Positions 6,515-30,000 of a stretch of DNA of 37,338 nucleotides are shown here, one piece after another. The position numbers and the translations under genes are program-made. Position 1 is the stretch's first letter. The number at the start of each line of letters is the position of its first letter. The DNA is from Stramenopiles sp. TOSAG23-2. Its lineage: Eukaryota. The notes below the pieces were generated by a model. It searched no databases and was not told where the DNA came from. It was given only the letters and a program-made list of their open reading frames with translations. The stretch is taken from NCBI GenBank assembly GCA_900128395.1, contig LT649327.1:1-37338 (forward strand). The letters run 5' to 3'.

Positions 6515-9310
6515 ATGAACGGGTATCAATATACAAATAGCAATCATTCTAGTATAGGAACTTATGCGCAACATCTTACAAGTCCACCAGGTTCCCCAAT
6601 AAAAGAATATGAGAGAAAGCAAAATGTATTATATGGGACTAGTCTAAGTCATTTATCCAAAACTATACCGGCAAAGGAGTACTATATGAGAAGGAAATTG
6701 AGGAAGAAAATACACAGACAATTCAAAGACGTTATAAATGAAAGACATGTTCCATACTTGGAACAATTTGATCACGGTGATGGACCAGAAAGAGTGGATG
6801 ACCAAAATTTTCGTCATAGTAAAGTCCAAAGAGACATGCTTACACTAATGAAACGCTGGGTACAGCGTACGTATACCAGGCAAGTTTGTGTCTTAGTTTG
6901 CCAATTTGACAATATTGATAAATATTTAATGGATTGTGGTATTGTTCACTACAATGCTATCACTGTGCGAACTAGGCAACTATGCCTACCAATTTTTAAC
7001 AAGTATAAAGCGTTATATATTACGACTAATTTGGATAGCTTCTCGGTAATATTTGACACTCCGGGACAAGCAGCCTGTGCTGCTTACGATGTAAAACACG
7101 TGTTGAATGCATATAAATATTCTCTAGAGGCTTCTCGTTCGCAATTTCAAGCACGTTTGAAACGTATAGGCATAGATATGGGAGGGGATATTATCATCGA
7201 TGCATTGGGGCAAATTCATGGTAAGCCAATGAGCAATGCTATTAAATACGTGGAAGGTCAGGTTAATAAACCATTTCAAGAAGGTCCTATATTAATGTCT
7301 CTGGCCCTAGTGAATAAAATTAATGGCATTCCTAGCTTTCAAAATGCTACGTTCACAGTATGTAAGGATTTAGAGTGTTTTGAGCTTGGTGGCGATATTG
7401 ACTACCAAAGTACTGTCGTTCCATATTCGGATATGCGATTTTTAAATCAAAACCTTCATGCATTTGCATTGCGAAATCAAAAAGGAATGGATATAGAGAA
7501 AGTTGAAAAGAACATAATGCTACATTTTGCTAAGAAAATGACGGTCTTGCATCTTAATATAAACGCACCTAATGAATTTTTAGGCAAATTTGGTGTAGAA
7601 TATGCTCTAATACACCGCATTGAAACACCCAAAATAATAGACAGCTGTATTCAAAAATATGATGTACAAGTCATTGCTGATGATATTTATGTATTTAAAA
7701 ATGCAACTGCTGCTGTACAATGTGTCAAAGATATGGTGGAAAGATTGGAAAAATGGAATAGCCAATGTAGAGATGAACGTAATGTACGAAGGATCACAGC
7801 ATATGGTATAGACACAAGCGTCTGTATACATGTACCTAACAGTGATATATACTGGGGAAAAGCGTTTGATGTAGCTAATTTAATTGGAACCATGAATCGC
7901 AATGGCGAAATATTGATTTCAGCGAACGTTTATTCCGATTTAGTTGATAGTGGGATGTTCCAGAGTTTACGTGCATTACCAACACGCATTGATACTTACT
8001 CTGAATCATCCCTATCGCTTTATTCTATATATTTTGTAAATATAGAAGAAGAGCAACAAAATAAATTAAATGATATTCGAAAGGGTAAAACCGTACGTTT
8101 TCATGATGGAAATCAAACACACGTGCCACAACAATTACAAAAACAACACCAATCCCGCCAGCCACAACCACTTTTAATGCCAAATGTAAAAAAAAAATAT
8201 GATATTAATAACGCACCTATATCAAGTCTTGGAGCAATTATTAAATCGGAAGGTGATTTTATCGGGACGGATTGGAGTAAAATTGTTAAAGATCGAGAGT
8301 TAGAAAGATATAGTACTAATAACACCATCGATGCTAGTTTTGATCCAAACAAATTTCAGTCGAGTTCCATGTGGGTACAAAAGACTATGGCTGAACGACA
8401 ACGTGAAGAGTACAATCGTACAAAAGCGGGTTTTGGAAGTTTAGGGAATCCAAATGATGTTTTAATGTATCAGACCTCTATGCGGGGAAGGCGATATGCA
8501 GATGTACCTCGTGGGAATGAAAAATTAGTACGAACACCTCAAAATAGATCTACAGCCAGATTCCAGCGACCTGTTGATACACAAGAAATTTTAAATTTAG
8601 GTGAGCAACCAAGTCCGTTAAAAACACGAAAATTGATAAAAGTGAAACCACATTACGATCCTGTTAGGCAGCAATATCCAGCATATTCACCGCATGCCCC
8701 TAACGCTTTAAATACAGAGAAAACTTCAACATTTGAAAAAGAGTTAAAAGTTCGTAACAGACCGATCGCAGTGAAAGGAATGCACCGCAAGAAGAAAGGA
8801 GTTTATAGTCCAAGACAAGAAGATGCACTGGATTGGAAAGATACTACGTCTGGAGGCGTAAAAAGCAATTTATATAATTATGGAAAAATAGCTCCTGAAG
8901 TTGTAAGTCCAAAATCACCTAGAGGATTGGAACAAAATGCAGGGAATGGGATCAAAGAGTTATTTGTAAGCTACAAAGACTGGAGTGATAACAAACTACT
9001 AGAACCTCTACCTATGAGGCGTTTTGATGGTTCCGGGCGTGAAATTGTGCAAAAAGAACATGAAACATACAACAGGGTTTTTCAACGTCATATGGAGAAA
9101 GGCGCAGAAAGTATTGCGCAAGATCAAGAAAAGCAAAGGGCGCTAAAGGCTGCCAAAGCGAATCTGGATTATCAACTTACTCATGAAAATAAATATAATG
9201 TGATCACATTGAAAGATCGAAAGACAGGAGAAATAGACAGCTCGTATACCAGGACAAAAGGTGTTAGAATTGTGAAAAGGTTGGATCAAAGTAGTTTGAG
9301 TTTGATGTAA
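6515..9310 (+). CDS. Protein with two degenerate class III nucleotidyl-cyclase-like domains and a disordered C-terminal tail
   Basis: Long ORF with ATG at 6515. Two segments (about 6870-7300 and 7530-7945) follow the cyclase pattern: VLVCQFD..., LDSFSVIFDTPGQAACAA, IGIDMG, HGKPMSNAIK, GPILMS; and TVLHLN..., DDIYVFKNATAAVQC, YGID, DIYWGKAFDVA, GEILISANVY. The CDS itself is confident; the domain call is moderate. Confidence 0.6.
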   Translation: MNGYQYTNSNHSSIGTYAQHLTSPPGSPIKEYERKQNVLYGTSLSHLSKTIPAKEYYMRRKLRKKIHRQFKDVINERHVPYLEQFDHGDGPERVDDQNFRHSKVQRDMLTLMKRWVQRTYTRQVCVLVCQFDNIDKYLMDCGIVHYNAITVRTRQLCLPIFNKYKALYITTNLDSFSVIFDTPGQAACAAYDVKHVLNAYKYSLEASRSQFQARLKRIGIDMGGDIIIDALGQIHGKPMSNAIKYVEGQVNKPFQEGPILMSLALVNKINGIPSFQNATFTVCKDLECFELGGDIDYQSTVVPYSDMRFLNQNLHAFALRNQKGMDIEKVEKNIMLHFAKKMTVLHLNINAPNEFLGKFGVEYALIHRIETPKIIDSCIQKYDVQVIADDIYVFKNATAAVQCVKDMVERLEKWNSQCRDERNVRRITAYGIDTSVCIHVPNSDIYWGKAFDVANLIGTMNRNGEILISANVYSDLVDSGMFQSLRALPTRIDTYSESSLSLYSIYFVNIEEEQQNKLNDIRKGKTVRFHDGNQTHVPQQLQKQHQSRQPQPLLMPNVKKKYDINNAPISSLGAIIKSEGDFIGTDWSKIVKDRELERYSTNNTIDASFDPNKFQSSSMWVQKTMAERQREEYNRTKAGFGSLGNPNDVLMYQTSMRGRRYADVPRGNEKLVRTPQNRSTARFQRPVDTQEILNLGEQPSPLKTRKLIKVKPHYDPVRQQYPAYSPHAPNALNTEKTSTFEKELKVRNRPIAVKGMHRKKKGVYSPRQEDALDWKDTTSGGVKSNLYNYGKIAPEVVSPKSPRGLEQNAGNGIKELFVSYKDWSDNKLLEPLPMRRFDGSGREIVQKEHETYNRVFQRHMEKGAESIAQDQEKQRALKAAKANLDYQLTHENKYNVITLKDRKTGEIDSSYTRTKGVRIVKRLDQSSLSLM

Positions 9311-9489
9311 AGTGTAGGTATTGGTGCGAAAAATATACGAAGTATAATAATATATTTCTCAGTGTTAAAAAAAAGGTGTTAGAATTGTGAAAAGGTTGGA
9401 TCAAAGTAGTTTGAGTTTGATGTAAAGTGTAGGTATTGGTGCGAAAAATATACGAAGTATAATAATATATTTCTCAGTGTTAAAAAAAA
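9256..9489 (+). repeat. Exact 115-bp tandem duplication spanning the stop codon and 3' UTR of the cyclase-like gene
   Basis: The unit AAAAGGTGTTAGAATTGTG...TTTCTCAGTGTTAAAA starts at 9256 and again at 9371. Confidence 0.95.
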
Positions 9490-9755: not shown

Positions 9756-10000
9756 TATATATTTGTTATTTGTATTTCTGCACACACTACTTTGAAGAAT
9801 CTTTCAAAGTTTTCTCTATTTGTCTTGCTTCCAATTATATATATTACATATTATATATATTTATGAGTAAATAAAATCTTTTTAAATTTTAAGTAAGAGA
9901 ATTTTTTATATATTTGTTATTTGTATTTCTGCACACACTATGATACTTTGAAGAATCTTTCAAAGTTTTCTCTATTTGTCTTGCTTCCAATTATATATAT
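9756..10000. repeat. ~90-bp direct repeat duplicating the stop and 3' UTR of the LicD-family gene
   Basis: 9756-9844 matches 9907-10000 except for a 5-nt indel; the copies are separated by an AT-rich spacer. Confidence 0.9.
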
Positions 10001-10906
10001 GAAGTTTTTTTCTTCTTTTTTCGTAGACGCTTCCGTTTCTTTTTCACTCGTTTCTTCTGTGATGTGGGCTTCTTTTTATTTACATTTTTATTTAAATCAT
10101 TCTTACTACTTCTCGTAACCTTTTTACCATTGGCATTTTTCTGTTCGTCCAATGGCTTTATTTCGTCTGATGCCATTGCTATAACTTGATCTTCCGTCAC
10201 TTTACCAGACTCAACCAAAGCAAGCAATTGGGATTCTGACATCTTGTTTTCCTGGATTAATTTTACAAGTTGAGATGTGGCAATTGTTTCTCTTTTCTTG
10301 TTTTTTCCTTCTGTAGATAATGGTTTTTGTTTCTGTATAGCTTCAACTTTCTTCTTCTTTTTTTTCACCTCCTTCTTTACTACTTTATTTTTCTTAACTA
10401 CTTTATCTTTCTTTCCTACTTTATCTTGCTTCCAATTATATGAAGTTTTCTTCTTCTTTTTTCGTAGACGCTTCCGTTTCTTTTTCACTCGTTTCTTCTG
10501 TAATGTGGGCTTCTTTTTATTTACATTTTTATTTAAATCATTCTTACTACTTCTCGTAACCTTTTTACCATTGGCATTTTTTTGTTCGTCCAATGGCTTT
10601 ATTTCGTCTGATGCCATTGCTATAACTTGATCTTCCGTCACTTTACCAGACTCAACCAAAGCAAGCAATTGGGATTCTGACATCTTGCCTTCCTGGATTA
10701 ATTTTACAAGTTGAGATGTGGCAATTGTTTCTCTTTTCTTGTTTTTTCCTTCTGTAGATAATGGTTTTTGTTTCTGTATAGCTTCAACTTTCTTCTTCTT
10801 TTTTTTCACCTCCTTCTTTACTACTTTATTTTTCTCAACTACTTTATCTTTCTTTCCTACTTTATCTTGCTTCCAATTATATGAAGTTTTCTTCTTCTTT
10901 TTTCGT
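9979..10906 (-). repeat. 441-bp (147-aa) near-identical coding tandem repeat, about 2.1 copies
   Basis: The anchor TCTTGCTTCCAATTATA occurs at 9979, 10424 and 10865 (spacing 445 and 441). The protein repeats KKKKKTSYNWKQDK...KRLRK with few substitutions. Confidence 0.95.
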
Positions 10907-12996
10907 ACTACTTTATCTGGTGATGCAGGAATCTTTCTATCTGTTGCTCTAGATAACTGTTTTTCCAACTTCAAAAACTGTTGTACCAAATCTTGTTTTT
11001 GCTCTGGTGTCCAATGTCTTTTCTTTTTTTCGTTGTCAGGATTTCTAGAATGCTTGTTACCTAGTAACATAGACTCTGCTTCTGCTTCTGATATGTAACC
11101 GTCATCAATTAGATCGACTGTATTAACAACTAATTGTTTCAAATCATCATCGGGGGCTGCTGCCGAGACTTCTTTCGTTACTATGGTTTCCTTTGTCTTC
11201 TTGTTTTTTTCTTCTTTATCTTTCTTCTCTTTATTTACTTCTTTCTGTAAAGCATTTACCGTTTCTTTTGTCATCGTTTTCTTTACATTGTTTTCCACAC
11301 TTTTCACTTTCCTCATAAAAATATAACTAAATGTTGGTCTTTTCTCGCCATCATCAAATTGTATATAATACGTATCGTCTCCATTAACTTGCCTAACAAT
11401 ACCCCTGTAAAACTTTTTCCAATGGCAACATTTACCTTCAATAATTTCACCAACTTCATATTTTTTATATTCAAATTCTGTAGCTTTATACTTGTGTTCT
11501 TTCTTATTTTTAAGATGTAATTGTAACGCTTCGTTTTCCTTCTTTTTTATAGCTTCTTTCATTTTATCGTTTAAGGTACCTTTATTTAATACTTTTTTAC
11601 AATCGTCAATTTTCAACATTATTTGATATGCCTCATCATATTCATATTCTGGTCGATAGTTACCTTCTTTTTCATTGCAGACGTTAAACGCGCGAAATAA
11701 ATCATGTGGGCAAATTAAGACTGTTTTATCCCATCCTGGATATATGCCGTTTAAATATTTTATGCGGCGCTCTTTAGGAGGTACATATGCTTCAACTCCA
11801 GATACATATGTTTTTTCCAATAACATCCCATGCTCCACATCTACTAATATGTCAAACCATTCTGGGCGAAATCCACCTCCGAAACGTTTCCCAGGCTTCA
11901 CACTGGTTAATTGCGCAATATAGTCGTAATAATCACTTGAAGCAGTTTCGCAATATGTATTTTCATCATTAAGGCATTTATAATGGATAAAAATGTCAAA
12001 AATTTTCTGCCCTTTTGCTGCACACTGATTGTGGTATCGAACATGTAGAAATCCCCAATTTAATGCTTCAAATGAAATACAATCTGGTTTGATTCCATTT
12101 TCTTTATTACCAGTCTCTTCCAACATAATGATTCGTACTTTAAAGCAAACGTTCATGTGGTTGCTACCACGACAATATTGATGATAAATAGCAAGTCCAG
12201 GTCTGCTTCTTGAAATATCTGTGTATTTACCAGGCACATCTGGAACTTGAAATATCCGCTCTGCTTCATCTAATGGAACAGTTGTATCTACATCGTCATC
12301 CCATGGAGATGCGAAGAGATTAAATCGTTCCATAGCAAGAAGGGCTCCATCACTTATTGTTTGCCGCAATTTATGATAATTCATAAAGGCAAATGCATTT
12401 TTCAATTTAACGTAATGAAATAAGTCATCGAATTCACTCAGCCAAGCTTTACAAGTTTTTGTCAATACAGATTTTAATGATATCAATGGTTTTTTCTTTT
12501 TCTTTTTCTTCGTAATAACTGCACTTGGTCCAGCTTCTTTTGATTTTTCTTGTTGGTTCTTCTTCATAATTAATTTTTTCAATTGTTCTAATAAATGCAT
12601 CATTTTTTTTGGCTTTAACTCAAAAAATCTCTCTACATCTGATACTATGTGTTTTTCTAATTCATCCCCATTCATGGATTTCTCGTCGTTTTTCCTTTTT
12701 TTTTTTGAAAAAGCATTTACTGCGAATGTCTTATCATCATTACTCTGTGTTCTCAATGCCTTGCCATTAGGACCTATTACAATATTATCCTGGTCATCGT
12801 TATTATTTATGATCCTCCTACTGCGTATTTGTTTATTATCTGTATGTTTGTCCATAGCTATTGGACTAAAATTGGATACATAGCTAGTCTTGAAGTAAAA
12901 AAAATAAAACATTTCAAATACAATGAAAAATATCCAAAATTTATAAATTTTATTGATTTTAAAACCATTATTATTATTTTTTATTTTTTTTGGCAT
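9991..12996 (-). CDS. Type II membrane LicD/fukutin-family (nucleotidyltransferase-fold) protein with Tudor-like domain and Lys-rich repeated C-terminus
   Basis: ATG at 12996 (MPKKIK). N-terminal TM segment FWIFFIVFEMFYFFYF. LicD signature DGALLAMERF...SPWDDDVD (consensus GTLLGAVRH..IPWDDDID), then FDIFIH and AYVP....KYLNGIYPGW. Tudor-like segment YEVGEIIEGK...FYRGIVRQVNGDDTYYIQFDDGE. Confidence 0.75.
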   Translation of the reverse strand: MPKKIKNNNNGFKINKIYKFWIFFIVFEMFYFFYFKTSYVSNFSPIAMDKHTDNKQIRSRRIINNNDDQDNIVIGPNGKALRTQSNDDKTFAVNAFSKKKRKNDEKSMNGDELEKHIVSDVERFFELKPKKMMHLLEQLKKLIMKKNQQEKSKEAGPSAVITKKKKKKKPLISLKSVLTKTCKAWLSEFDDLFHYVKLKNAFAFMNYHKLRQTISDGALLAMERFNLFASPWDDDVDTTVPLDEAERIFQVPDVPGKYTDISRSRPGLAIYHQYCRGSNHMNVCFKVRIIMLEETGNKENGIKPDCISFEALNWGFLHVRYHNQCAAKGQKIFDIFIHYKCLNDENTYCETASSDYYDYIAQLTSVKPGKRFGGGFRPEWFDILVDVEHGMLLEKTYVSGVEAYVPPKERRIKYLNGIYPGWDKTVLICPHDLFRAFNVCNEKEGNYRPEYEYDEAYQIMLKIDDCKKVLNKGTLNDKMKEAIKKKENEALQLHLKNKKEHKYKATEFEYKKYEVGEIIEGKCCHWKKFYRGIVRQVNGDDTYYIQFDDGEKRPTFSYIFMRKVKSVENNVKKTMTKETVNALQKEVNKEKKDKEEKNKKTKETIVTKEVSAAAPDDDLKQLVVNTVDLIDDGYISEAEAESMLLGNKHSRNPDNEKKKRHWTPEQKQDLVQQFLKLEKQLSRATDRKIPASPDKVVRKKKKKTSYNWKQDKVGKKDKVVEKNKVVKKEVKKKKKKVEAIQKQKPLSTEGKNKKRETIATSQLVKLIQEGKMSESQLLALVESGKVTEDQVIAMASDEIKPLDEQKNANGKKVTRSSKNDLNKNVNKKKPTLQKKRVKKKRKRLRKKKKKTSYNWKQDKVGKKDKVVKKNKVVKKEVKKKKKKVEAIQKQKPLSTEGKNKKRETIATSQLVKLIQENKMSESQLLALVESGKVTEDQVIAMASDEIKPLDEQKNANGKKVTRSSKNDLNKNVNKKKPTSQKKRVKKKRKRLRKKKKKTSYI

Positions 12997-13330
12997 TTTT
13001 TCGACTATATTATAATTATTATTACTAATATTATACAACAATCGTCAGTGGAATATAATATATAACCAAGACAACGTTTTTTACTTTAATTTAATCAAAT
13101 AATGCACCATACAATGTATCTGTATATAATAAGACGATAAAAGAGGGGAGAAATGTATGAAAACCTCCCGAAAACATTCGATGTGAGATGACCTCTTATT
13201 ATCTCATCTCTACAAACATATTAATATTAATCAATTTTAATATACATGCATTTGTAAATAAAAAAATGATGATGTTTTTTCGCACGTTCCTCCAGAGCTC
13301 CTACTCAGGAAACCCCGCTATGCTATTCGC

Positions 13331-13523: not shown

Positions 13524-13705
13524 AAACGACAAATAACTTGAAAAATTAAATTATTTAATCTGATAATATCCGAAAATACGCATCTTGTAAAAAAAAAAAA
13601 CAATCAAGCATAGTAAACGACAAATAACTTGAAAAATTAAATTATTTAATCTGATAATATCCGAAAATATGCATCTCGTAAAAAAAAAAAAAGGTCAAGC
13701 AAAGT
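13524..13705. repeat. 91-bp imperfect tandem duplication inside the TIR element
   Basis: AAACGACAAATAACTTGAAAAATTAAATT...TCAAGCA(T/A)AGT starts at 13524 and 13615, with a few substitutions. Confidence 0.9.
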
Positions 13706-14392: not shown

Positions 14393-17300
14393 ATGGATTT
14401 TTTTCTCAAGAAAAAAAGTACAACTGTAAACAAGAATGTTTCGCCAAGTATAACAACATCGATGTTTGGTGGGAAAGGCACAGGTACTAGTGTAACGAAT
14501 GGAGATAAAATTGTGAACACTGCTAAGAAAGCTGCATCAACTATTGTTGATACTACAACACCAAAAACAACGTTGAAAAATAATAAACAAATAACAACAC
14601 CTGTGCGCAATAATGCCAATAAAAACAAGAAACGAAAATCCAGAAGCAGTGAAAAGAAGAAAAAGCCTAAAAATACAAAACAAGCGGCATTTATGGCTAA
14701 TTTTTTTGGCGCAAAGAAGAAGAAAAAGAAACTCGTAGTTGAAACAAGTGACGGCAAAAATGATACGTTGGATAAAGCATCAGCTTCAGTTGTTACAAAA
14801 CCTGCAACTACAAAAATAAGTAGTAATAATAATGTAATATCAACTACAAGTTCGTCATCCTTGTCGTTAAATAATAAGAAGCGCCCTGTATCTGAATTGA
14901 GGTCTTCACCTAGTGCAAGTTCACCAGAAAATACCAACCGAGCAACTGGTTCTGCCAGTAAAAGTAGTAGTAGTAGTAAAAAAAAGAAAACTCTCAACAT
15001 GTTTTTCATGGCAAAAAAACAGAAAAAATTAACAATGGATAATAGTAATAATGTAGCTGTAACCACAACAAGTGATACGAAAATGGATGTTGATGTAAAC
15101 AGCCCTGCTAAAGAAGCTAGAAATATTCAATTAGCAACATCTACTAAAACTCTTGAGGAAGGGAAGCAATGCGAAGAAGAAGAATCAGATGAAGATAGTG
15201 AGGATAGTTCCAGTGATGAATCTGGACTGGAAGACGATGAAATTGAATTGGTCGACATTGATCCTAAGCAATTGGAATTGCAAGCTCAACAAAAGTTAAA
15301 AGAAGCAGAAGCAATGAAAGCAAAGGCTAGAGCAAAAGCAGAAGCAGAAGCAGCGAGGATACGAGAAGCTGCTGCCAAGGTGCTAAAAGAGCAAGAAGAA
15401 AGAGAATACCAAGAAAACTTGATCATTATTAAAGAGACTATGGATAGAATGTTGAATATTACTACGCTTGACGTTTTAAGAGAAAGGTGTACCAATAATG
15501 GAGATGATATGAACATTAAGGATGTGGTATATTGCTATGATATGACTGGTGTTCGACTTGATAGTGTTATTGCGCCATGCGGTCTTTTGTATAAAGCCGA
15601 CGTATTGAAAATTGGTATGAGAAAGTTTGGTGGTAAAAAATCAAAAAAAGAACGAGAAAAAGCATATACTATTCATTTTCATGGCTTTAGTAAAAAATGG
15701 GATACACAAGTACCCCAATCACGATTGTTAAATGTAAATGCTGCGAGCGATGAGGTATGTGAGGCGAGTGAAATAATATATGACATCGAACGTAAAAAGT
15801 GGGATGAGGAAGAAGCAAAACTCGTGGAAGAAGAAGAACGATTAGCTGCTGAAGCAAAAGCAAGGGAGCCACCAAAAGCTGAGGTGTTGCATCAAGCTGC
15901 AGTGCAGCGATTAGCAACTACAACGTTGCCAATCGTGTTAGATGCATGTTTAAATGGCGGGACAGCTACTGTCTTGAACTTAGGCGAGTTGAAGCCAGGG
16001 CACTTATACAACTCTCAGAAACAACTTTTTCCAGTTGGATATCAAAGTGAATTTTTATATACTTCATACAAAGACGCTACAGCTACAGTCACGTATCTAC
16101 AAACATTGAAACAAGGCTTAAGTGGGTCGAAGCGCCCCATCTTTGAAATTAAATTATTAGGTGAAGGTGCAACGGAAGATGACGTCTTTCAAGGGAACAA
16201 TGCAAATTCTGCTTGGAAAAATATAAATAATAGGCTCCGAGTACAGACAAAAACGCAAGGCATTTCATATAAAAAAGTTAATGGTACGGAGGCATTTGGG
16301 TTTAGCAACAAACAAATCGTAGCACTTTTAGAAGGGCTGCCTAATGTAATGGACGCTAACGGCTACGTTTTTCAAGATCGAAGAATTTTTGAAGGGATTG
16401 AAGAGGAGAAAAGTTCTACTAAAGGAAACGCAAAAACAACTAGTAAAAACTCAAATCGACAAAAGGTTCCTGCGAAAAAGCCATTGCCAGATTTATCACC
16501 AAAGGAAAAGAAAAGAATCCATAATAATTTAGTTGAATATTCTACAAAATACAAAGAATTATTAACAAAATGCGCAACATTTCAAAGCGATGCAAAACGT
16601 TGGAGAAAGCAACGCATGTTAAGAAAATTCGGTACGCAATTTAAAAAAGGTGAAAATGAACATTTTGGAAAAATGAATGAATTTCTTGTTAGTGATGAAA
16701 ATTTACAAATAGCTATTGTGAAATTTATCCAAGGCAGTCGCGCTACATTATCGCAATTAATTAAAAATATATTAAAAACATTGAAGCAAAAGCGGAGTAA
16801 AGTAGATGAGCAATCTTTAGCCACATTCATAACTACCCAGGCCAAACGTGTTCATATCGCTGTAAAGCCAAGTGAAGATTGCAGTACAAAGGAAGAAGAA
16901 AACGAGAATATGGAACGTGAACCATTTTGGGTTTGGATGGTAAAAAAGCCAGAATTTATATTTAAAAATGTTAAAAATGTTTATAAACCTGAGAAACAAC
17001 AATTTCGAGATTTAAAACCAAAAATGGATTCGTTTAGCAAATACGTCACACAATATAAAAAATGCATTGCTATCTTAAAAGATGAATATGTTACTATACA
17101 GAAATGTTTAAATTGCGAGGAAAGTATTAAATCAGCTGGAATGACATATGAAACTGACACATTGAAATACAAACAACGATATGATAAAGCATGTGAAAGT
17201 AATAAAGCTGAGCTAGAAGCTATGAAGGAAAAAGAATTGCGCCGTATTGAAAGAGAGAAAATGTGGAAGGAAAAACGACTTGCAAGAGAACAGGAAAAAA

Positions 17301-19408
17301 TTGAACGACGTCGTCAAGTGGAAATCAGAGCTGCTGAGCGTGCTGCGCTGAAAGCGGAGAAAGAAAGACAAATTTTACTCGCAAAGCAATTGAAGCAGCA
17401 AGAGTTGGAAAAACGTAAATTGACTAGCTTCGGGTTGACGATCAAACGATCAAATAGTCTAAGTGGTCAAACAGGATCAGCAAATACAAATGGTATGTCC
17501 AGTAAAAAATTAATGAAATCTATTTTAATACCACTGGTACAGGAATTAGTAGAAAAGGCATATGGGAACACACTGGTGCAAGACTTAGACAATTTACTTC
17601 AACTTAATTCAGATGGAACATCGAATTTTGATAACAATGCATTATTTCAAGAATTTAAAGATCGTTGTGTTGCTAGTAAAAAAATAAAGTCCCAAATACA
17701 AAAAGGTCAAACATCCAACCGCAAACAATTGTTGCAATTTAGTGAAAATCAACGTCCTGCATTTTGGGGAAATTATTATTTTACTACCAAAAATAATGAC
17801 GAGGAGGAACTTTTGAAAGAAAATGAGGAAAATACTATTGTTTCGTATAACCATGGCACCACTATTAGTAAACTTGCACCATTGACGCAAGATCCAAATG
17901 TAATTGCTTCCTACGAGTTGGATAGTGATGAAGAGTGGGAAGATGGCGCTCCAGCTGAAGAGTTAGGTTCAGATATTGAAGATGATGAAGAAGATGATAA
18001 AGACGGGAATAAAGAAGGAGAAAACGAAAATGATTTGGACTTTGCTGATGGTTGGTTATTAGGAGATGATGAAGTCATATACGAGGGAGAAAATCCAAAT
18101 AACCTAGGTGGTAAAAATATGATGTCTGGCGATTACGAATCAGATAGTGACTCTGATGCCTTCAGTGATGATGAGAACGCCTTAAAAGCGAGACGAGTAC
18201 CTAGTACTTACTTTTTGTGGTTAAACAATAACCGGGAAAAGATAAAAGCTGAAGCAATGAAAAAAGAAGATTTCCAACAATCAAAAGTAGCCGTCTTGGT
18301 ATCTAAATGTGCTGGTGAGTTGTGGAAAGCGTTGACGGACGAAGACAAAAAGCCTTACATATCGATGCGTGAAAAATTACTTGAAGAGTCCAAAGCAGAA
18401 TTTGAAGCGTTGAAATTAGCGAATAAAGACAAACCAAAAGAACGAAGGAAGAAGAAAAAGCATAAATTTGCTAATAATTCAGAGATAGGGCATGAATTAG
18501 TAGTTGGTGTACTATACGATTTAAATGAAGATGACAAAAGCGGGAATGTGCAAGCAGGAACATCTCAATTGTTACAATACAATGTGATGCCTTTAACGTC
18601 GTTGCCTATAAAAATTAACATGACGTCTGCGGATGAAAAGAATGATGATGCTAGCAGTGGTAAAAATGCATTAGGCTTCAAGAGATTGTCGATGAAAGAA
18701 TATAGAAAGAAACAAGCAATCCAAAGGGAGGCGAAACGTGTTAAAATGGAAGCAGAAAAAGCAGAAAAACGCAAAAAGCGAGAGATGGAAAAACAATTAA
18801 GGCAATTAAAATTGGAGAAAATCGAACAAGAAAAGTTGGAAAGAATGAAACAGCGTGAAAAGGAGAAGCAAGATCGATTGGCGAAACTGGAACAAGAGAA
18901 ACTAGAAAAAGCGAAAAAACGTGAAAAAGTAAAACAATTAAAACTTGAAAAGCTTGAGCAAGAAAAACAACTAAAAATAAACAGGGAAGCAGAGCGTGAA
19001 AGATTAAGATTGGAGAAAAAAAGAATTGCCGACCTGAAATTAAAAGAAAAACTTGAAAAACAAAAAGAAAAGGAGATCAAAGCAGTTCATTTAGAACCGT
19101 TCTATTCGTCAATCCATAATAAAGTTAAAAAGGCGGTAGCTTTGGATGCATTTTACGCTCGTTTCCCTATGGTTGGTAAGAAACAGACAGAAAAATTATT
19201 GAAACTTATATGTGTTCGTGAAAGTCGTGATTTTGATCGTATCAAATGGTATGTAAAAGATGAATTTAGAACATTAATCTTAAAGGATCCAGATGAATGC
19301 ATGAAAAAAATCAATGAAATGAGCAACAATAGTAACAAAGGTAAACGAAAATTGAGTGGCGATGTTAGTAACAACGAGAACACGCCAAACAAAAAGAAAA
19401 AGGAATGA
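14393..19408 (+). CDS. CHAF1A: Chromatin assembly factor 1 large subunit (p150/Cac1/FAS1-like) with extra chromo-barrel, FYRN/FYRC and HMG-box domains
   Basis: CAF1A motifs KQLLQFSENQRPAFWG, P...D....YELDSDEEWE..., an acidic tract and DGWL..DDE. KER coiled coil. C-terminal WHD-like F..RFP.VGKKQTEK.LK.I..RE.....KWYVKDE. Plant FAS1-like IQGSRATLSQLI...FWVW. Also YTIHFHGFSKKWDTQVPQSRLL (chromo barrel), VLNLG..LFPVGY...PIFEI...SAW...NGTEAFGF.....LLEGLP (FYR) and PSTYFLW....REKIK...GELWKALTDEDKKPY (HMG). Confidence 0.85.
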   Translation: MDFFLKKKSTTVNKNVSPSITTSMFGGKGTGTSVTNGDKIVNTAKKAASTIVDTTTPKTTLKNNKQITTPVRNNANKNKKRKSRSSEKKKKPKNTKQAAFMANFFGAKKKKKKLVVETSDGKNDTLDKASASVVTKPATTKISSNNNVISTTSSSSLSLNNKKRPVSELRSSPSASSPENTNRATGSASKSSSSSKKKKTLNMFFMAKKQKKLTMDNSNNVAVTTTSDTKMDVDVNSPAKEARNIQLATSTKTLEEGKQCEEEESDEDSEDSSSDESGLEDDEIELVDIDPKQLELQAQQKLKEAEAMKAKARAKAEAEAARIREAAAKVLKEQEEREYQENLIIIKETMDRMLNITTLDVLRERCTNNGDDMNIKDVVYCYDMTGVRLDSVIAPCGLLYKADVLKIGMRKFGGKKSKKEREKAYTIHFHGFSKKWDTQVPQSRLLNVNAASDEVCEASEIIYDIERKKWDEEEAKLVEEEERLAAEAKAREPPKAEVLHQAAVQRLATTTLPIVLDACLNGGTATVLNLGELKPGHLYNSQKQLFPVGYQSEFLYTSYKDATATVTYLQTLKQGLSGSKRPIFEIKLLGEGATEDDVFQGNNANSAWKNINNRLRVQTKTQGISYKKVNGTEAFGFSNKQIVALLEGLPNVMDANGYVFQDRRIFEGIEEEKSSTKGNAKTTSKNSNRQKVPAKKPLPDLSPKEKKRIHNNLVEYSTKYKELLTKCATFQSDAKRWRKQRMLRKFGTQFKKGENEHFGKMNEFLVSDENLQIAIVKFIQGSRATLSQLIKNILKTLKQKRSKVDEQSLATFITTQAKRVHIAVKPSEDCSTKEEENENMEREPFWVWMVKKPEFIFKNVKNVYKPEKQQFRDLKPKMDSFSKYVTQYKKCIAILKDEYVTIQKCLNCEESIKSAGMTYETDTLKYKQRYDKACESNKAELEAMKEKELRRIEREKMWKEKRLAREQEKIERRRQVEIRAAERAALKAEKERQILLAKQLKQQELEKRKLTSFGLTIKRSNSLSGQTGSANTNGMSSKKLMKSILIPLVQELVEKAYGNTLVQDLDNLLQLNSDGTSNFDNNALFQEFKDRCVASKKIKSQIQKGQTSNRKQLLQFSENQRPAFWGNYYFTTKNNDEEELLKENEENTIVSYNHGTTISKLAPLTQDPNVIASYELDSDEEWEDGAPAEELGSDIEDDEEDDKDGNKEGENENDLDFADGWLLGDDEVIYEGENPNNLGGKNMMSGDYESDSDSDAFSDDENALKARRVPSTYFLWLNNNREKIKAEAMKKEDFQQSKVAVLVSKCAGELWKALTDEDKKPYISMREKLLEESKAEFEALKLANKDKPKERRKKKKHKFANNSEIGHELVVGVLYDLNEDDKSGNVQAGTSQLLQYNVMPLTSLPIKINMTSADEKNDDASSGKNALGFKRLSMKEYRKKQAIQREAKRVKMEAEKAEKRKKREMEKQLRQLKLEKIEQEKLERMKQREKEKQDRLAKLEQEKLEKAKKREKVKQLKLEKLEQEKQLKINREAERERLRLEKKRIADLKLKEKLEKQKEKEIKAVHLEPFYSSIHNKVKKAVALDAFYARFPMVGKKQTEKLLKLICVRESRDFDRIKWYVKDEFRTLILKDPDECMKKINEMSNNSNKGKRKLSGDVSNNENTPNKKKKE

Positions 19409-20632: not shown

Positions 20633-21841
20633 TTACATATTTGCCCCATCTTGCAATAGAATAACACTTCGAAGTGCTTCCCCACTGTGAAGTTTGTGGA
20701 ATGCTTCATTAATGTCTTTTAAAGGAAAGGTAAAAGTAATAAATTCATCAACCTTTAGTTTTCCATCAAGATATTTTTGGACATAACCACCGAGTTGGGT
20801 GCGTCCACGTGTTCCACCGAATGCCGTTCCATGCCATTCTTTCCCAATTACCATTTGGAAGGAACGTGTCGCGATCTCTTTTCCCTCCGGTGCAACACCA
20901 ATAATACAGCTTTTACCCCAACCCTTATGGCAATATTCAAGCGCTTGACGCATGGTTGTTGTATTGCCAATAGCTTCAAATGTATAATCTGGGCCAGCGC
21001 CTGGATAACCACCACAAAGTTTATTTAAATACGCACCAAGATCTCCACCTTCAACTGTTTTTGGATTAACGAAATCAGTAGCCCCAAAATCTTTTGCCAT
21101 TGGAAATTTTGCTTCATTGATATCAATAGCAACAATTTTCCTGCATCCAGCTTCTTTCAATCCCATGATAACTGCAAGTCCAACACCTCCAAGACCCCAA
21201 ACTGCCCCGATAGTATCTGGTTCCACTTTGATCGTGTTCATTACTGCACCATATCCTGTGGTAATACCACAACCTAATAAGCCAATTTTATCCAATGGTG
21301 CTTCTTTTGGCACTACAGCAACAGAAATTTCTGGGCATACAGTATACTGTGAGAACGTAGAGCATCCCATGAAGTGATGAACCACTTTGCCATCCATTGT
21401 ACTAAAACGAGATGTACCATCAGGCATGACACCTTTCCCTTGTGGTCCACGAATTACACCACACAAATTAGTTTTGGCGAAATTTTTTTTCGTGCAATAA
21501 CAGCAAAAGCCATAGTTTGGTTCATTTTCATATTCGTTTCTGCATTCTGGAATATATAAAGGTATAACGTGGTCACCGACTTTCACACTTGTTACTCCTT
21601 CACCAATTGATTCAACGATACCACCACCTTCATGTCCAAGAATAACAGGGAATTGTTGAGAAGCATATAGCGGTTCTGAATAATCAGTATGGCATACACC
21701 ACTACCAATAATTTTAATACGCACTTCCAATCTTTTTGGCGGTGCAACTTGTACATCAACAATTTGCAACTCACCTTTTCTTTCAAATTGTACAGCAGCT
21801 TTGCATGTAATGACTTTTCCTTCCGTAGCAATAGCAGACAT
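20633..21841 (-). CDS. ADH5: Class III alcohol dehydrogenase / S-(hydroxymethyl)glutathione dehydrogenase (GSNOR)-like
   Basis: ATG at 21841 (MSAIATEGKVITCKAAV). Motifs GVCHTD, FPVILGHEGGGIVES, GDHVIPLYIPEC, KTNLC..IR..QGKGVMPDGTSRF, FMGCSTFSQY, LLGCGITTGYGA, GLGGVGL, CHKGWG.S, GTAFGG. Confidence 0.9.
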   Translation of the reverse strand: MSAIATEGKVITCKAAVQFERKGELQIVDVQVAPPKRLEVRIKIIGSGVCHTDYSEPLYASQQFPVILGHEGGGIVESIGEGVTSVKVGDHVIPLYIPECRNEYENEPNYGFCCYCTKKNFAKTNLCGVIRGPQGKGVMPDGTSRFSTMDGKVVHHFMGCSTFSQYTVCPEISVAVVPKEAPLDKIGLLGCGITTGYGAVMNTIKVEPDTIGAVWGLGGVGLAVIMGLKEAGCRKIVAIDINEAKFPMAKDFGATDFVNPKTVEGGDLGAYLNKLCGGYPGAGPDYTFEAIGNTTTMRQALEYCHKGWGKSCIIGVAPEGKEIATRSFQMVIGKEWHGTAFGGTRGRTQLGGYVQKYLDGKLKVDEFITFTFPLKDINEAFHKLHSGEALRSVILLQDGANM

Positions 21842-21843
21842 AA

Positions 21844-21851
<8 letters not shown>

Positions 21852-21875
<24 letters not shown>

Positions 21876-24066: not shown

Positions 24067-27000
24067 TTAACCACGCTTATTACGCACAGCATTCAATCCA
24101 CCACCTGCTACAGCACCTAAACGTGGATCTGTCCAGCTGGTAGTTTTCGTGTTATGATTTTTGTAATAATAACGACCGCTACTAGCCTTGACTTTAGTAA
24201 TCCATGGTGGCAATGGTCCTAATCCACTATCATCATCCGTTTTAGTTTGCAATCCTAATTTTGGACTGGAAGAACGGCTACTATCACCCCAAGCTATCAA
24301 AGAATCACGAATGCCTTTCATTACTTCGGATACACTCACAGTCTTATCTTTATCATAATCGAAATGAAGCATAACTAATTTAATATGATCTTCATTCAAG
24401 CTTACATTGAAATCTCTTAAACTATCGCGGAACTCTTTTACATCTAACTGTCCATCATCGCCTGCATTAATTTTCAAAAACTTTTCCAATTGTTGCAAAG
24501 ATCGTTCTTTGTTATTTGGATTTCGGACAATTATTTGCTTGCCGATAGTACCCAAAGCTTGTTTCAGCGTATTTTGGTAAATTTGCCACTCTTCCTCTGA
24601 ACTCATCTTTTCTCTAATACTACTTTCTGCTAATTTACGTTTATTTGCAGCTTGTTTCTCCAACGTACGTTTATTAATAGATCGTCGTGGAGATACATTC
24701 ACAGCTGGAGATTGAAGATTTTCTCTTCCAACTCTTGGTCTTGTTGGTGTATTTATGCTGCCACGAATTTCATTTGCTTTAAGACTTTGAGATGGAGATT
24801 GTACTACTTGTACATTGCCTGTATAGGTAAAAAACATTTATGGTCAGTGTTGTGTTCGTAAAATGTTATATATATTAGTTGTGATAATGATTATATATAA
24901 ATATGATCTATTTTTTTGTTTTTTGTACTTACTTCTATCAGCTAGCTTTCTATTTTCCTCATCCTTTTGTTTTAATTGCTCCATTAATTCTTGAACTTTC
25001 TTTTCCTTTGCATCGTTTTCCTCTTTCAATTTCTTTGCATCCTCTTCAGCTTGTTTGGCTTTTGCAGCAATTTGTTCTTTTTCCTTGACAGCTGCTGCAT
25101 GTTCATCCTCTTTCCTTTTTAATCTTTCGGCAATTTCTTTTTCCCTATCACTTGCATTAGCTGATGGTGTAATTGCCATTGCTTGATTTTTCTTAGCCTT
25201 CTCTTTCTCTAATTCCTTCTGTATCTGTTCCATCTTCTGCTTATAATCATTTGCCTCTTTCTCAGCTTTCTCTCTTGCTTTCTGAGCCTGATCTTTCTCC
25301 TTCTGCGCTGCCACTATTTTCGCTTTACTTTCAGCTTTTAGCTTTGTCGAATCAACATTGGACGAAAGATTGGATTTACTCTGATATTGTTTAGAAGGGG
25401 CTGATGGTTTAGCTAATTGCAATTTCAATTTATCTATTTCCTCCTGCATCTTACTCTTTTCCTCGCTGCTGAATATATCCGCAAAAGCCCTGTTGCCTTT
25501 AACCGCCGCGAGTATTTTATTTGTTTTTTTCTTGGAGGTAGTCTTTGCAATGCCTTTTTTCTTTTTATCAGCGACTCCAAAATCCATATGTTTCTTACTA
25601 GTACTGAACGTGTACATGATGCGGATTTCACCAGTTTTTTCAGGCGCTGCAACTTGTTCATACGAATCATTGCGGTATATTGGAAACCACTTGTTGCCCA
25701 CATCATGTCCTAAACTACTTATTAATGAAACAGGGATTTCACAATCACCAATATACTGATCCCCACCTGCACCTTTCATATTGCTCAATGGTGTTGTAAA
25801 TGCAGTCAGCATCAAACGTGGGGTAATCTCCTTCCCTAAATGCAGCACACTGCATTTCAATCTTTCCCATAAATTACTATCAAATTCATCAACAAACTTA
25901 AATACATCTTTCTCGGATTCTTTTTCATTCCGTGCATTTTCCTCTTCGCCTAATGCTTTAGCCTCGCTCTCTAGAACTATTTTCCCTTTATAAGTTGTAT
26001 ACTTTTCTATTTCACCAATATTTTCGGATTTACCATGTACAAAACTTTGCCATCGCTTTTCATCGTCAAATTGCCAGTTAGCAGCTACTCCACCTTTCTT
26101 GGATTTCTCTTCTTCCACTTTACTTCCAGTTAGGAATGGCGGCTTGGCTTCTTGGACAGAATCACTTGCCGATTCGAAATTCCAATTTTTTTGCCAACCT
26201 TTAGGACCAACAATTTCATATTCGTTGGCTGATCGAGAATCATAGGCAGTACCAAAGAGCATGCCACTTTTTGGGTCTCTCCGGACAGAAACAACTACGT
26301 AACGGGGATCTTTCATGATGACACGAGAATTGCCACTTCGTACAACCTTTTCCCGATTACGCAAGATGTATGGTACCATATAAAATGAAATTTCTATAGG
26401 CTTTTCTGTATCATATTGTAATTCCATAACTTCAATGTTTTTGTTCTCCTTTTTCTTCGGCTTCTCTTTCTTATCTTCGTCTTCACCTGTTTCCGCATCT
26501 GTTGAAACTTTCTTTGATTTATCGTTTGTAGACTTATTACTATTTACCTCTTCAGTAGCTTCCGGCTCCTCTTTCTTATCTTCGTCATACTTGCATATTT
26601 GTAACCGTAAGTATTTCTCTTTCTCATTTTTAGCATTTTTGTTTTCATACAAATTATTTTGTAACCAAAATTCCAATGCATGTTCCCCATGGCCACTTGT
26701 TGTACAAATATTTTCGTAAATAATATTTTTTATCCTATCCGGTAGACTTTTAGTATAGCAGCTACGCCCTTTGTATGTAAACTCGCAATTATTGCACCAG
26801 TCTTCAAAATAGTTATCGACATTTGACTTTGGCACGAAAGAGATAGCCTGCACAATTAACAAAAAGAGCGTCTTTTGTGAGATTTCATTTGCATGTAACT
26901 TACGCTTCGATGATTTCTGTTTTTCTCTCCAAATGGTTTTAGGTCGCCCAAATCCTAAATGCATGACATCTGTATGTTTAATAGGCAATGCATTCGTTGT

Positions 27001-30000
27001 TGGGCAATATGGAACCTCAAATGTAGCATTAAACCATGGCTGCGATCCACCATCTTTATCAGCTTTGGTCCGTTGATAGAAATTTCTGAAGCCGTCCGTT
27101 TCTTTGTTTTCATCATGCTTAGGCAACATTTCAACTGATACATAAGGATTTTTCATATTTTCTAAATGGCTGACAAATGTAGTCCAATCCATAGATTCGT
27201 TTGTTGCACCATCACTGGACTGAAATACGACTTTCAAAACAGAAGAAGTTCCACTCAAGTATGCCCTTAATCGTTTCTTTTGTCGAATTGCATCTAAGAC
27301 TCTCTTCCTACGTTTCACGAGTGAGTCTGGGGCATCCGATTGATCTACTTTAACATCTTTAAATCTTGATCCTTTATTAGTAGATGTAGCCATTGCGTCA
27401 TCATCGTCATTTTCTTCATCTTCGACCCTGAATGTCAATGCCTCTGAAGTTGCATTGATGAAGAAATCAAACGAATTCTCTGCAAATGCGTCTTGCAATG
27501 CCTGGACAAATGTTTCACTTTCCCCTAGTTTCAATTCGATTTTTCCTGAAGTACTGTCTCTAGAAATCAACAAACGATTCGCAAACTTCCTGCACGCTCT
27601 CTCCTCTGCTGGCTGTAGCGCTGATACAAAAACTGGGCACATTTTGTCTATTGCATAACGTTGTTCCAAATCACCGCGAGCACGTGAAAGCATTTCATCG
27701 CAATGACTAATATACGCCGTATATTTCGATGATTTCGTTAATCCCCTTTCGCCTTTTTTCAACCGTTTAGGTGAAGCTATTTTTGCGTATTTATTATCGA
27801 GCAATAAATCTGCCAAGATCGACATGTAGGACATGTCTTCCTCGATCACCAGTTTCAGTTCCTCCTGTGATTCTGGATCACGGGCAATAGCTACAATATT
27901 TTTCCTTGTACGGTCTACACCCAATGTTACTAGCCAGTAGGTTATTCCATCTGCATTGTTAGATTTTCGTCTCAGCAAATAACGCAATTTTTCTTCGATG
28001 TGTTCCACGGAAGCACCTTTCATTAGTCTTGCTAGATCAGAGCAAGCAACCTCATTTTGTATATTCAAATCATCTAAAACCATTTTCAGCTTAATCAATG
28101 CTGGAAGTTCATCGTTTTTTTTTACTTTGAATTCCATCAATGCCTTTGCCGCCTTTTCTTCCTCGGATTCTCTGTCAACATTTTTCGTATCATCAGCGGT
28201 TCCGTCAGTATTTGGGGCATTTTCCTCAGATTTCTGCGTTTCATCATCAGCGGTTCCGTTAGTGTTTAGGGCAACGTTAACAGAATCCTGTGCGTGCTCT
28301 GTATCACAAATAGAGTACATTTGTTCATGCAATCGTTCAACAAAATCAGATATTAAAACAACACAAAAATCATTTATGCGCGTTACTTTGAATTTGCTAA
28401 ATGCTTGTGTGACATCTACTGCATCATCCACCTGCCCAGCAACACTAGCTAACGCTTCTAACGCTTGTTTTGCTAATTCGCGGGTCTCTTTTAAATTCAA
28501 AGGATCATCTCCGTCATTACCTCTGGATGAATTTTCAGCTTTAATGGCCAATGTCGGCTTTCTATAAACATGTTCCACCGAGCCCCATTCTGCAACATAC
28601 GTATGTGGTTGTTGCGCAACCTCGCACCCTTCTTTATCTTCCAAAAGTGTTTTCGTTTTCTCATCCCCTTCCTTTAATTCTCCCTCTAGCAAGCTAGTAA
28701 AATAACTCTCCGTTGTTTCTAAATTAGATTCACCGCCACCAGCGTATTTCATTTCGAATACACGGACTACACGCTTTAATTCATCCAATGTTAATGGCTG
28801 CTCTAGCAAATCTTCCCAACTTTCTATTTCACTCTCAGCAGCATCCGCTGCCCTTAGCTTACTAAGTTTAGATGTAACCCCATTTTTGAAAATGCTTCGA
28901 AGTTGAGAAAGTGCACCTTGGTCATTAGATAATGGCCAATGTACTTTTTCATATTCAATTGTACCAGTCTCTTTTTTTGGATCCTCTCCTGTTGCTTCTT
29001 CCTTCGTATCTTTTCTATTTTTTTCTTGTCGTATACTGCCTATGTAAATTTTTTGCATAATCTGTAGGACTTCATGCAAAGATCGACGTTTCACGAGTGT
29101 ATCTTCATTGCTCTTCAACCATAAGGCAAATTCTTTATAGTCAATTTCGCCATCACCTTCCCTATCAAAACGTTCCATCAATGTTTTCACTTCTTTTTTA
29201 TGGAGCTTAAATCCCATAGTCTTTAATGCAGCGGAGAATTCTTTAATATCTATAGTGCCGCTTCTATTTGAATCAAACCGATTGAACCACTTCATAATGT
29301 TTTGTGATTCACGATCTTTCGCAGACAAAACTTTTTCTAATCCTGCAATTCGCATGCACCGTTGCCATATAGGCACGAAGTCACTACGATCATCTCTAGA
29401 CGCTGTCGATTGCAATTTAGAAATTTCATTGGCTTTTCTAGATCCTAAATGTACCTTCTCAATTATATCAATGACAGTAAACACTCGTTTTAATACTACT
29501 GATTCAACATATTCAGCAAGTTGGGTATAAATTGAACTATCAAATACTTTTTCCTCTTTTTTTCTAAACCCAGCAGATACCAAAGTTTTAGGAGTATCGT
29601 CTCCAAAATTATGCCTTGTTTTATTTCTATAATGTTCTCCACTTAAAAGCTCTGCTTTTCCTCCACTCCCCCGTTTCCCAGCGCTAACTTTAACTACATC
29701 AATGTAACGCATTTCATGTTTTGCTTCATCGTCTCGCTGCATATATTTATTTCGCTGCTTCTGTTTGACCCATTTTTTGAATTTGTTAATACGCTTCTTA
29801 TCCAATTCTTGGTATTTTTTTACTTTATGCCGTTTATCCAAATATTTATCCAATGCCGAGTTCTTTCCGCCTTTCTTAGTTTCAATATCATCCTCATCGT
29901 TATCAATTTGTGGATTTTCGCCACCATCTGGTGTTTCCTTTGCTCCTGCGGTAGTACTTGCGGTTGTAGATTCGGAAACTTCCGTGGCGCTGCCACTTTT

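Follow-up and report, generated by a model that had tools for sequence, protein, structure and literature searches.

Does a single protist gene join the large subunit of the histone chaperone CAF-1 to modules that may read chromatin marks, and is such a layout confined to this gene? The question is raised by an open reading frame (ORF) of 1671 codons on the forward strand of contig LT649327.1 of Stramenopiles sp. TOSAG23-2 (GenBank assembly GCA_900128395.1); the window analysed here is the whole stretch from position 1 to 37,338 of this contig. An initial annotation, made from the sequence letters and a list of ORFs, had described the product as a CAF-1 large subunit fused to chromo-barrel, FYR and HMG-box modules and had proposed it as an undescribed system. 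Using Pfam, PDB sequence searches, AlphaFold2 models, Foldseek and a search for relatives, we assigned this protein, named P0001, to the CAF-1 large subunits (p150/Cac1/FAS1) as a lineage-specific, enlarged homologue; this identity and the domain architecture are very likely correct. We thus regard P0001 as a genuine variant of this subunit, specific to its lineage, with an unusual, but not a unique, layout. The features of the gene and its product are collected in Table 1.

The ORF starts at its first ATG, and an in-frame stop codon lies at position 14381, 12 nt upstream of this ATG. When the mononucleotides of the window were shuffled 100 times, the longest run without a stop codon averaged 119 codons and never exceeded 159, versus 1671 codons in P0001. 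Sequences that are at least 90% identical to P0001 form a cluster of 37 members. Among the 15 members listed, at least six are near-identical full-length proteins (1671–1675 amino acids), each located on a separate contig of 5157–5914 nt; one of them, P0002 (1671 amino acids, on a 5914-nt contig), is 99% identical to P0001 along all 1671 residues. Further relatives were collected by a HMMER search of the whole library with P0001, in which the best 150 of 213 matches were examined, and the counts given below are lower bounds. This search gave P0017 (1371 amino acids, on a 57.7-kb contig), which has 38–39% identity to P0001 in one collinear alignment covering query residues 6–901. Another orthologue, P0167 (1366 amino acids), is present on a 20.6-kb contig and also as a EukProt gene model. 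Collinear orthologues of P0001 with 34–39% identity thus occur on contigs of 20.6 and 57.7 kb and in EukProt. The modules common to P0001 and P0017, both Pfam-defined and otherwise conserved, show similar conservation, with 30–60% of aligned residues conserved per region.

Because of these independent full-length copies and collinear orthologues, we consider the ORF to be a single gene, in agreement with the initial annotation. An artefact, in which separate genes were fused by misassembly or read through by chance, is a highly improbable alternative: nothing was found in its favour, and it is contradicted by the length of the stop-free run, by the at least six independent full-length copies, by the collinear orthologues on two long contigs and in EukProt, and by the even conservation along the length of the protein. 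The window has a G+C content of ∼34% and few introns, and P0001 is encoded by a genuine nuclear gene that has no introns, in an AT-rich, intron-poor eukaryote.

The canonical parts of the CAF-1 large subunit are found in P0001 in the canonical order: PIP-like motifs close to the N-terminus, a K/E/R-rich stretch (putative KER), the CAF1A core including its acidic histone-binding stretch, and a C-terminal winged helix. The CAF1A core is recognized by the Pfam profile CAF1A_dimeriz (PF12253) at residues 1112–1205 (nt 17726–18007) with 33.5 bits against a cut-off of 25. The top four of its eight PDB matches are all human CHAF1A (E-values from 8.8e-08 to 1.5e-05). Two blocks of the core, ENQRPAFWG (pattern ENxRPA(F/Y)WG) and YELDSDEEWE (pattern Y-E-(L/V)-D-S-D-E-E-W-E), can be aligned with p150.

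The first K/E/R stretch precedes the acidic core, which is where the KER of CAF-1 is located. It has 27 charged residues out of 50 in the segment 951–1000 and aligns with the K/E/R stretches of three relatives (P0017, P0029 and P0091). The Pfam family PF11600 has no match in P0001. The N-terminal part of the protein contains two h-x-x-F-F motifs that precede basic runs. The first of them aligns with a canonical motif, Q-N-F-M-A-S-F-F, in the orthologue P0017; the second is not kept in P0017. A third position, immediately after the KER, is degenerate in P0001 and canonical-like in relatives: P0029 has AAITSFF there, and P0091 has SLFQFF close by. Judging from their sequence, the PIP-like motifs of P0001 may bind PCNA.

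The C-terminal winged-helix domain (WHD) was established from two independent lines of evidence. A family profile built from five C-terminal sequences has its best PDB match in residues 736–830 of human CHAF1A (E 0.0016). In the AlphaFold2 model of residues 1255–1671, which has a mean predicted local distance difference test score (pLDDT) of 66.5, the domain has the topology helix-helix-helix-β-β-helix with pLDDT 79–89. The first-ranking Foldseek match of this model is the Cac1 C-terminus (5jbm; probability 1.00, target-normalised TM-score 0.62, root-mean-square deviation 2.4 Å), and the third is the WHD of CAF-1 p90 (5ejo).

Five modules are added in cis to this canonical set: a chromo barrel, a FYR domain, a middle domain, an HMGB-type HMG box that follows the acidic stretch, and a helix of 127 residues that precedes the WHD. 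The chromo barrel matches the Pfam profile MSL3_chromo-like (PF22732) at residues 398–452 (nt 15584–15748), scoring 34.2 bits where 28 is the cut-off, and the Tudor-knot profile gives 20.5 against a cut-off of 20.8. In the AlphaFold2 model of residues 365–905 (mean pLDDT 70.6), a five-strand barrel is formed by residues 378–448. Its Foldseek matches are MSL3 (3m9q/3ob9), MRG15 (2f5k), MRG701, Eaf3 and MRG2, with probability 1.00 and target-normalised TM-scores of 0.60–0.86. By phmmer the barrel matches MRG15 (2efi/2f5k), and the motif Y-x-G-W-x-x-x-W of MRG15 appears here as F-x-G-F-x-x-x-W. The Y, W and W of the MRG15 motif are what we take to be its methyl-lysine pocket. The aligned positions, F, F and W in P0001, are aromatic in all three orthologues: Y, Y and W in P0017, and F, F and W in both P0167 and P0168. 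By analogy with MRG15, the barrel could read methylated histone marks, a suggestion that we make tentatively, at somewhat less than even chances.

The FYR domain of P0001 is complete, as FYRN and FYRC are both present and form a single α+β domain. Both parts are above their Pfam cut-offs (FYRN at residues 521–570, nt 15953–16102, 34.6 against 24; FYRC at residues 581–661, nt 16133–16375, 42.1 against 21). The region matches KMT2D and TBRG1 in the PDB sequence search. It is modelled with pLDDT 85–92, and its Foldseek match is TBRG1 (2wzo; E 1.8e-07, target-normalised TM-score 0.78).

Between the FYR domain and the KER lies a conserved middle domain without a known family. It is modelled as four helices and a β-hairpin that bears an invariant W-x-W (pLDDT 70–85), and all four family members in the alignment have the same residues at the positions of I793, R819, W846 and W848. 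Its best Pfam match has an E-value of only 0.018, and the ESM Atlas gave no usable match either for the whole of P0001 or for residues 755–905. In secondary structure, the helix-helix-helix-helix-hairpin arrangement of the model gives the impression of a winged-helix topology. A second Cac1-type WHD was considered for this segment and found no support in sequence comparisons: the Pfam Cac1_C profile gives E=2, and an hhalign comparison with the C-terminal WHD profile gives 0.2% probability. The best PDB profile match of the middle domain, RSC8, whose alignment has to span a gap of 40 residues, was taken to be spurious.

The HMG box is located between the acidic stretch and the next conserved segment. 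It scores 31.7 with the Pfam profile HMG_box (PF00505) against a cut-off of 25.4. All 33 PDB sequences that it matches at E≤0.01 are HMG-box proteins, the best being SRY/HMGB1 (2gzk, E 6.3e-07), followed by Abf2, HMGB3 and SSRP1. The segment after it is conserved in P0017, P0029 and P0020 and contains short strands of low pLDDT in the AlphaFold2 model. A PDB search with its single sequence gave no matches. This segment may be a candidate p60-binding region. It is followed by residues 1434–1560, which form one unbroken helix in the model (pLDDT 89–95) with 30–32 charged residues per 50.

The architecture described in the initial annotation was recovered by these analyses, both in its domains and in their order. 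The chromo barrel, FYRN/FYRC, CAF1A and HMG domains had been listed in this order, and all five corresponding Pfam domains score above their cut-offs with coordinates that agree within a few codons; profile searches thus retrieve the FYR, chromo and HMG domains alike. The second KER-like coil proposed at nt 18690–19080 corresponds to the single predicted helix of residues 1434–1560, modelled at pLDDT ∼90, and the WHD-like end is borne out by the CHAF1A profile match, the topology of the model and the Foldseek match to 5jbm. A helical domain, labelled FAS1-like, had been placed at nt ∼16700–16950. A real domain lies there, being conserved in four of four family members and modelled at pLDDT 70–85. 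The first KER coil agrees with the composition of the segment and its alignment to relatives. AlphaFold modelling reproduces the barrel, the FYR domain, the long helix and the WHD, but not the HMG box with any confidence, as this part of the model reaches pLDDT 40–66 only.

Table 1. Coordinates of the CAF-1 large-subunit gene and of the segments of its product, P0001, in the window.
Feature	Residues	Position (nt)	Strand	Evidence
Whole single-exon ORF (P0001), 1671 amino acids + stop	1-1671	14393..19408	+	ORF listing, shuffle control, near-identical copies
PIP-like motif 1, AAFMANFF followed by a K run	98-105	14684..14707	+	Regular-expression scan; Q one residue outside the canonical register
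PIP-like motif 2, TLNMFF followed by a K-rich stretch	200-205	14990..15007	+	Regular-expression scan
Chromo barrel, MRG15/MSL3/Eaf3 type	~375-452	15515..15748	+	Pfam, phmmer, AlphaFold2, Foldseek
FYRN and FYRC, adjoining, one FYR domain	521-570 and 581-661	15953..16375	+	Pfam, PDB sequence search, AlphaFold2, Foldseek
Conserved middle domain without known family	761-857	16673..16963	+	Family alignment, AlphaFold2
K/E/R-rich stretch in the canonical KER position	~936-1008	17198..17416	+	Composition, alignment
Degenerate post-KER PIP position, KLTSFGL	1009-1015	17417..17437	+	Alignment to relatives
CAF1A core and acidic ED stretch	1105-1235	17705..18097	+	Pfam, PDB sequence search
HMG box	1268-1338	18194..18406	+	Pfam, PDB sequence search
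Conserved post-ED segment (K-rich run, then LVVGV...YNVMPL)	1346-1433	18428..18691	+	Conservation
Second K/E/R-rich stretch, single long helix of 127 residues	1434-1560	18692..19072	+	AlphaFold2, composition
C-terminal winged-helix domain, Cac1/p150 type	1564-1649	19082..19339	+	Family profile, AlphaFold2, Foldseek

By analyzing the relatives of P0001, we found FYR and CAF1A together in at least four further divergent proteins from environmental or EukProt data (P0017, P0029, P0091 and P0064), which differ in the modules added to them. P0017 and P0167 combine a chromo barrel, FYR and CAF1A and have no HMG box. In P0029, which has a Tudor, FYR and CAF1A, a Tudor domain of the PTM/DIR17 type replaces the chromo barrel. 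P0091 has FYR, CAF1A and two HMG boxes, one after FYR and the other after the WHD. P0064 has FYR, and its CAF1A match, with 22.9 bits, falls short of the cut-off of 25. The identity of these FYR-CAF1A relatives to P0001 ranges from 20 to 39%, being 20–22% for P0029 and P0091. A tree of CAF1A cores, in which P0001 and four fungal sequences were represented by pieces of 575–1083 amino acids, left 5 of 11 inner branches open and was uninformative. A profile search with four sequences added only P0167, the N-terminal fragment P0168 and five fungal CAF1A proteins, and a word-indexed search with P0001 alone retrieved its own cluster only. Two of the FYR+CAF1A clusters include EukProt gene models.

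The HMG box is distributed more narrowly. At the position that it occupies in P0001 it was found, among the matches listed, only in the cluster of P0001 itself and in P0020, a fragment that is 51% identical over 194 residues and whose own Pfam HMG score of 21.1 is under the cut-off of 25.4. P0017, P0029 and P0091 have no HMG box at this position. Other combinations were observed in P0034 (zf-CW, HMG, CAF1A, Cac1_C and MBD) and in P0031/P0189 (HMG, CAF1A, Cac1_C and MBD); in P0189, the Cac1_C winged helix is matched in three stretches. The fungal CAF1A proteins retrieved have PF12253 with or without PF11600 only, except for one with an extra CKS domain, which is probably due to a joining of gene models.

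The proposed novelty of the architecture was therefore borne out in part: the HMG box in this place is limited to the cluster of P0001 and P0020 among the matches listed, whereas the FYR+CAF1A layout recurs in P0017/P0167, P0029, P0091 and P0064. The designation as an undescribed system was not retained, as the finding is a variant protein architecture and not a system. Public sequence data already contain the layout, two EukProt gene models among them, and it may be listed in domain databases. In the literature searched, we found no description of CAF1A with FYR, chromo-barrel or HMG modules. The main text of a preprint on chromatin evolution (10.1101/2021.11.30.470311) contains no occurrence of CAF1, CAF-1 or FYR, and its supplements may list such architectures.

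Since P0029 and P0091 are only 20–22% identical to P0001, the FYR-CAF1A backbone appears to be old. It can be speculated, with more doubt than confidence, that FYR, the middle domain, the KER, the CAF1A core and the WHD define an old, undescribed subfamily of CAF-1 large subunits spread across several protist lineages (its members being ∼20% identical), in which readers (chromo barrel or Tudor) and HMG boxes are swapped in and out and the chaperone would sense parental marks at the fork to steer the site of H3-H4 deposition or the choice of a partner enzyme. If this were true, epigenetic inheritance would be wired in cis in these lineages, where animals, fungi and plants use separate adaptor proteins.

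Comparison with known proteins delimits what is shared and what is added. Like the CAF-1 large subunits CHAF1A/p150, Cac1 and FAS1, P0001 has the CAF1A core with an acidic histone-binding stretch, a preceding K/E/R stretch, a C-terminal winged helix and PIP-like motifs. It differs from them in its length of 1671 amino acids, in the five added modules, and in having neither a canonical PIP box nor a Pfam Cac1_C score. The added modules are absent from the fungal CAF1A proteins retrieved, and to our knowledge p150, Cac1 and FAS1 have no chromo barrel, FYR domain, middle domain, HMG box or second helix. With the FYR-CAF1A relatives (P0017/P0167, P0168, P0029, P0091 and P0064), P0001 has in common a backbone that consists of FYRN/FYRC, the middle domain, the putative KER, the CAF1A core and the WHD, and with P0017, P0167 and P0168 also the chromo barrel. 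P0034 and P0031/P0189 resemble P0001 in that the chaperone core is joined in cis to readers of chromatin or DNA marks and to HMG boxes; by domain type, these would be readers of methyl-CpG or H3K4me-type marks. Unlike P0001, these proteins have no FYR domain, chromo barrel or middle domain, and they belong to a different lineage.

The individual modules can be compared in the same way. With MRG15/Eaf3/MSL3, P0001 shares the barrel fold, the sequence family and a putative aromatic pocket, whereas it has no MRG domain, carries an inserted basic loop (residues ∼408–421) and has F, F and W in place of Y, W and W. With the FYR proteins KMT2/MLL, JMJ14 and TBRG1 it shares contiguous FYRN and FYRC that form a single domain, as in TBRG1 (2wzo), but it has no SET or JmjC catalytic domain and its FYR is placed on a histone chaperone.

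Animals couple CAF-1 to chromatin state in trans, p150 binding HP1 and MBD1; P0001 and its MBD-, zf-CW- and Tudor-bearing relatives have the putative reader in cis. What such a protein might do is proposed here by analogy with better-known proteins, and this applies to all functional statements on P0001. According to a study on yeast CAF-1 (PMC10335832), tethering to PCNA is the task of the PIP box and H3-H4 binding that of the acidic region; the single KER helix and the WHD bind DNA, cooperate and set the DNA-length preference, and a doubled KER can replace the WHD. The FYR domain of JMJ14 is described, in PMC4659397, as a protein-interaction module that binds partner transcription factors. 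On this pattern, P0001 would be tethered to PCNA behind the fork, and its acidic core would hold new H3-H4 together with the p60 and p48 subunits. Nascent DNA would be engaged by up to four elements (the KER, the HMG box, the second helix and the winged helix), of which the HMG box and the second helix would be extra DNA-binding capacity. The chromo barrel would dock on parental nucleosomes that have been recycled, at their methylated histone tails, with H3K36me or H4K20me suggested by analogy with MRG15/Eaf3/MSL3, and the FYR domain would recruit a partner protein. As a result, deposition of new nucleosomes might be biased by, or coordinated with, the local chromatin state, and P0001 may in this manner couple deposition to the inheritance of histone marks, as the initial annotation had suggested.

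Several observations weigh against this interpretation. The canonical PIP box, Q-x-x-[ILM]-x-x-[FY]-[FY], has no regular-expression match in P0001, and the post-KER position is degenerate. The Pfam profile CAF1A_acidic gives no score on P0001, nor does Cac1_C on its C-terminus, and the Foldseek E-values of the WHD are weak (0.05 for 5jbm, and 0.11). The AlphaFold2 confidence of the chromo barrel is moderate (pLDDT 45–75). The HMG part of the model is poor (pLDDT 40–66), its alignment being nearly devoid of HMG homologues, so that the HMG box is called from sequence. Methyl-lysine binding by the barrel is an argument from analogy, and barrels of the MSL3 type bind DNA too, as the title of PDB entry 3oa6 indicates. 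The sequences of p60, p48 and PCNA are not within the window, and membership in the complex is predicted. The contigs of 5.2–5.9 kb that bear the near-identical copies look like transcripts, judging by their sizes. Finally, a second, canonical CAF1A gene may be present elsewhere in the genome.

Two other explanations can account for some of these observations. P0001 might be a specialised paralogue that has kept the CAF1A core and acts as a chromatin-state scaffold in repair, in silencing or in a histone-modifier complex, with replication-coupled assembly carried out by a plain CAF1A encoded elsewhere. The missing canonical PIP box and the degenerate post-KER position are in line with such a role, as are the heavy load of reader and interaction modules and the existence in fungi of plain CAF1A proteins without such modules. 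However, all canonical modules are kept in order in P0001, including the WHD and a PIP-like motif whose counterpart in P0017 is canonical, and the whole-library search with P0001 gave no high-identity plain CAF1A, which is weak evidence because the library is not sorted by organism. We consider a specialised paralogue unlikely.

The other explanation retains P0001 as a CAF-1 large subunit and denies that its added modules read marks. The barrel, the HMG box and the extra helix would add affinity for nucleic acids and FYR would be structural, as an adaptation to AT-rich DNA or to another DNA length measured in tetrasome assembly. The DNA contacts of MSL3-type barrels (title of PDB entry 3oa6) speak for it, and so does the yeast precedent from PMC10335832, in which the preferred DNA length depends on the KER helices and the WHD, and a doubled KER can replace the WHD. 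In addition, Phe takes the place of Tyr or Trp at two of the three aligned pocket positions. On the other hand, the pocket positions stay aromatic across orthologues of 34–59% identity, and relatives bear other bona fide readers (Tudor, zf-CW and MBD) on the same core. The occurrence of these readers on a chaperone core suggests selection for reading chromatin state. We consider a purely non-reading role of the added modules less likely than not. Taken as a whole, with its mechanism included, a CAF-1 large subunit with modules built in cis is probably the best explanation of P0001.

The genomic neighbourhood of the CAF-1 gene in the window includes genes for an RCC1-repeat protein, a teneurin-like EGF protein, a class-III alcohol dehydrogenase, an ankyrin protein, a WW/EF-hand protein and a giant calpain-like protein. 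No match was obtained in the window with Rfam or in a scan for tRNAs. The divergent neighbour of the CAF-1 gene (9991–13041, reverse strand) is an ORF of 1016 amino acids with no Pfam family above the cut-off and with sub-threshold matches to LicD (E 0.015) and Tudor_5 (E 0.031). The segment encoding its lysine-rich C-terminus (9996–10907) is a tandem duplication of 441 bp, present in 2.1 copies with 98% identity. The downstream neighbour (20633–21871, reverse strand) encodes a class-III alcohol dehydrogenase/S-(hydroxymethyl)glutathione dehydrogenase, for which a 99%-identical protein is found on a 1456-nt contig; its nearest named homologues, 54–60% identical, are from animals, amoebozoans, Thecamonas, Cafeteria, Chrysoparadoxa and Tribonema, a spread over distant eukaryotic groups that neither supports nor refutes a stramenopile origin. 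A further ORF of 934 amino acids (6506–9310, forward strand) has no Pfam family, the best match being TagH_C at E 0.0041, under the cut-off.

The giant calpain-like gene (24844–34898, reverse strand) is split across two overlapping ORFs. Positions 35–141 of the Peptidase_C2 profile are matched in 34005–34898 and positions 142–237 at the start of the 3067-amino-acid ORF at 24844–34047, which suggests that a short intron or a frameshift lies around 34000–34050. EF-hands are located at residues 1583–1642. Three two-copy tandem repeats were identified in the window: one inside the RCC1-repeat gene (1333–1548; 108 bp, 100% identity), one across the 3' end of the ORF at 6506–9310 (9256–9489; 115 bp, 100%) and one upstream of the CAF-1 gene, in intergenic DNA (13524–13705; 91 bp, 93%). 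These repeats could be genuine duplications or could stem from stutter of the assembly.

An open question is how new nucleosomes behind the fork acquire the parental chromatin state. The CAF-1 of model organisms is known to meet mark readers via separate proteins only. P0001, in which a chromo barrel, a FYR interaction domain and putative extra DNA-binding parts are held within one chain, is a compact test case for this question. The architectures of P0001 and its relatives show that, beyond animals, fungi and plants, a core chaperone of replication-coupled assembly has a more plastic domain repertoire than textbooks convey.

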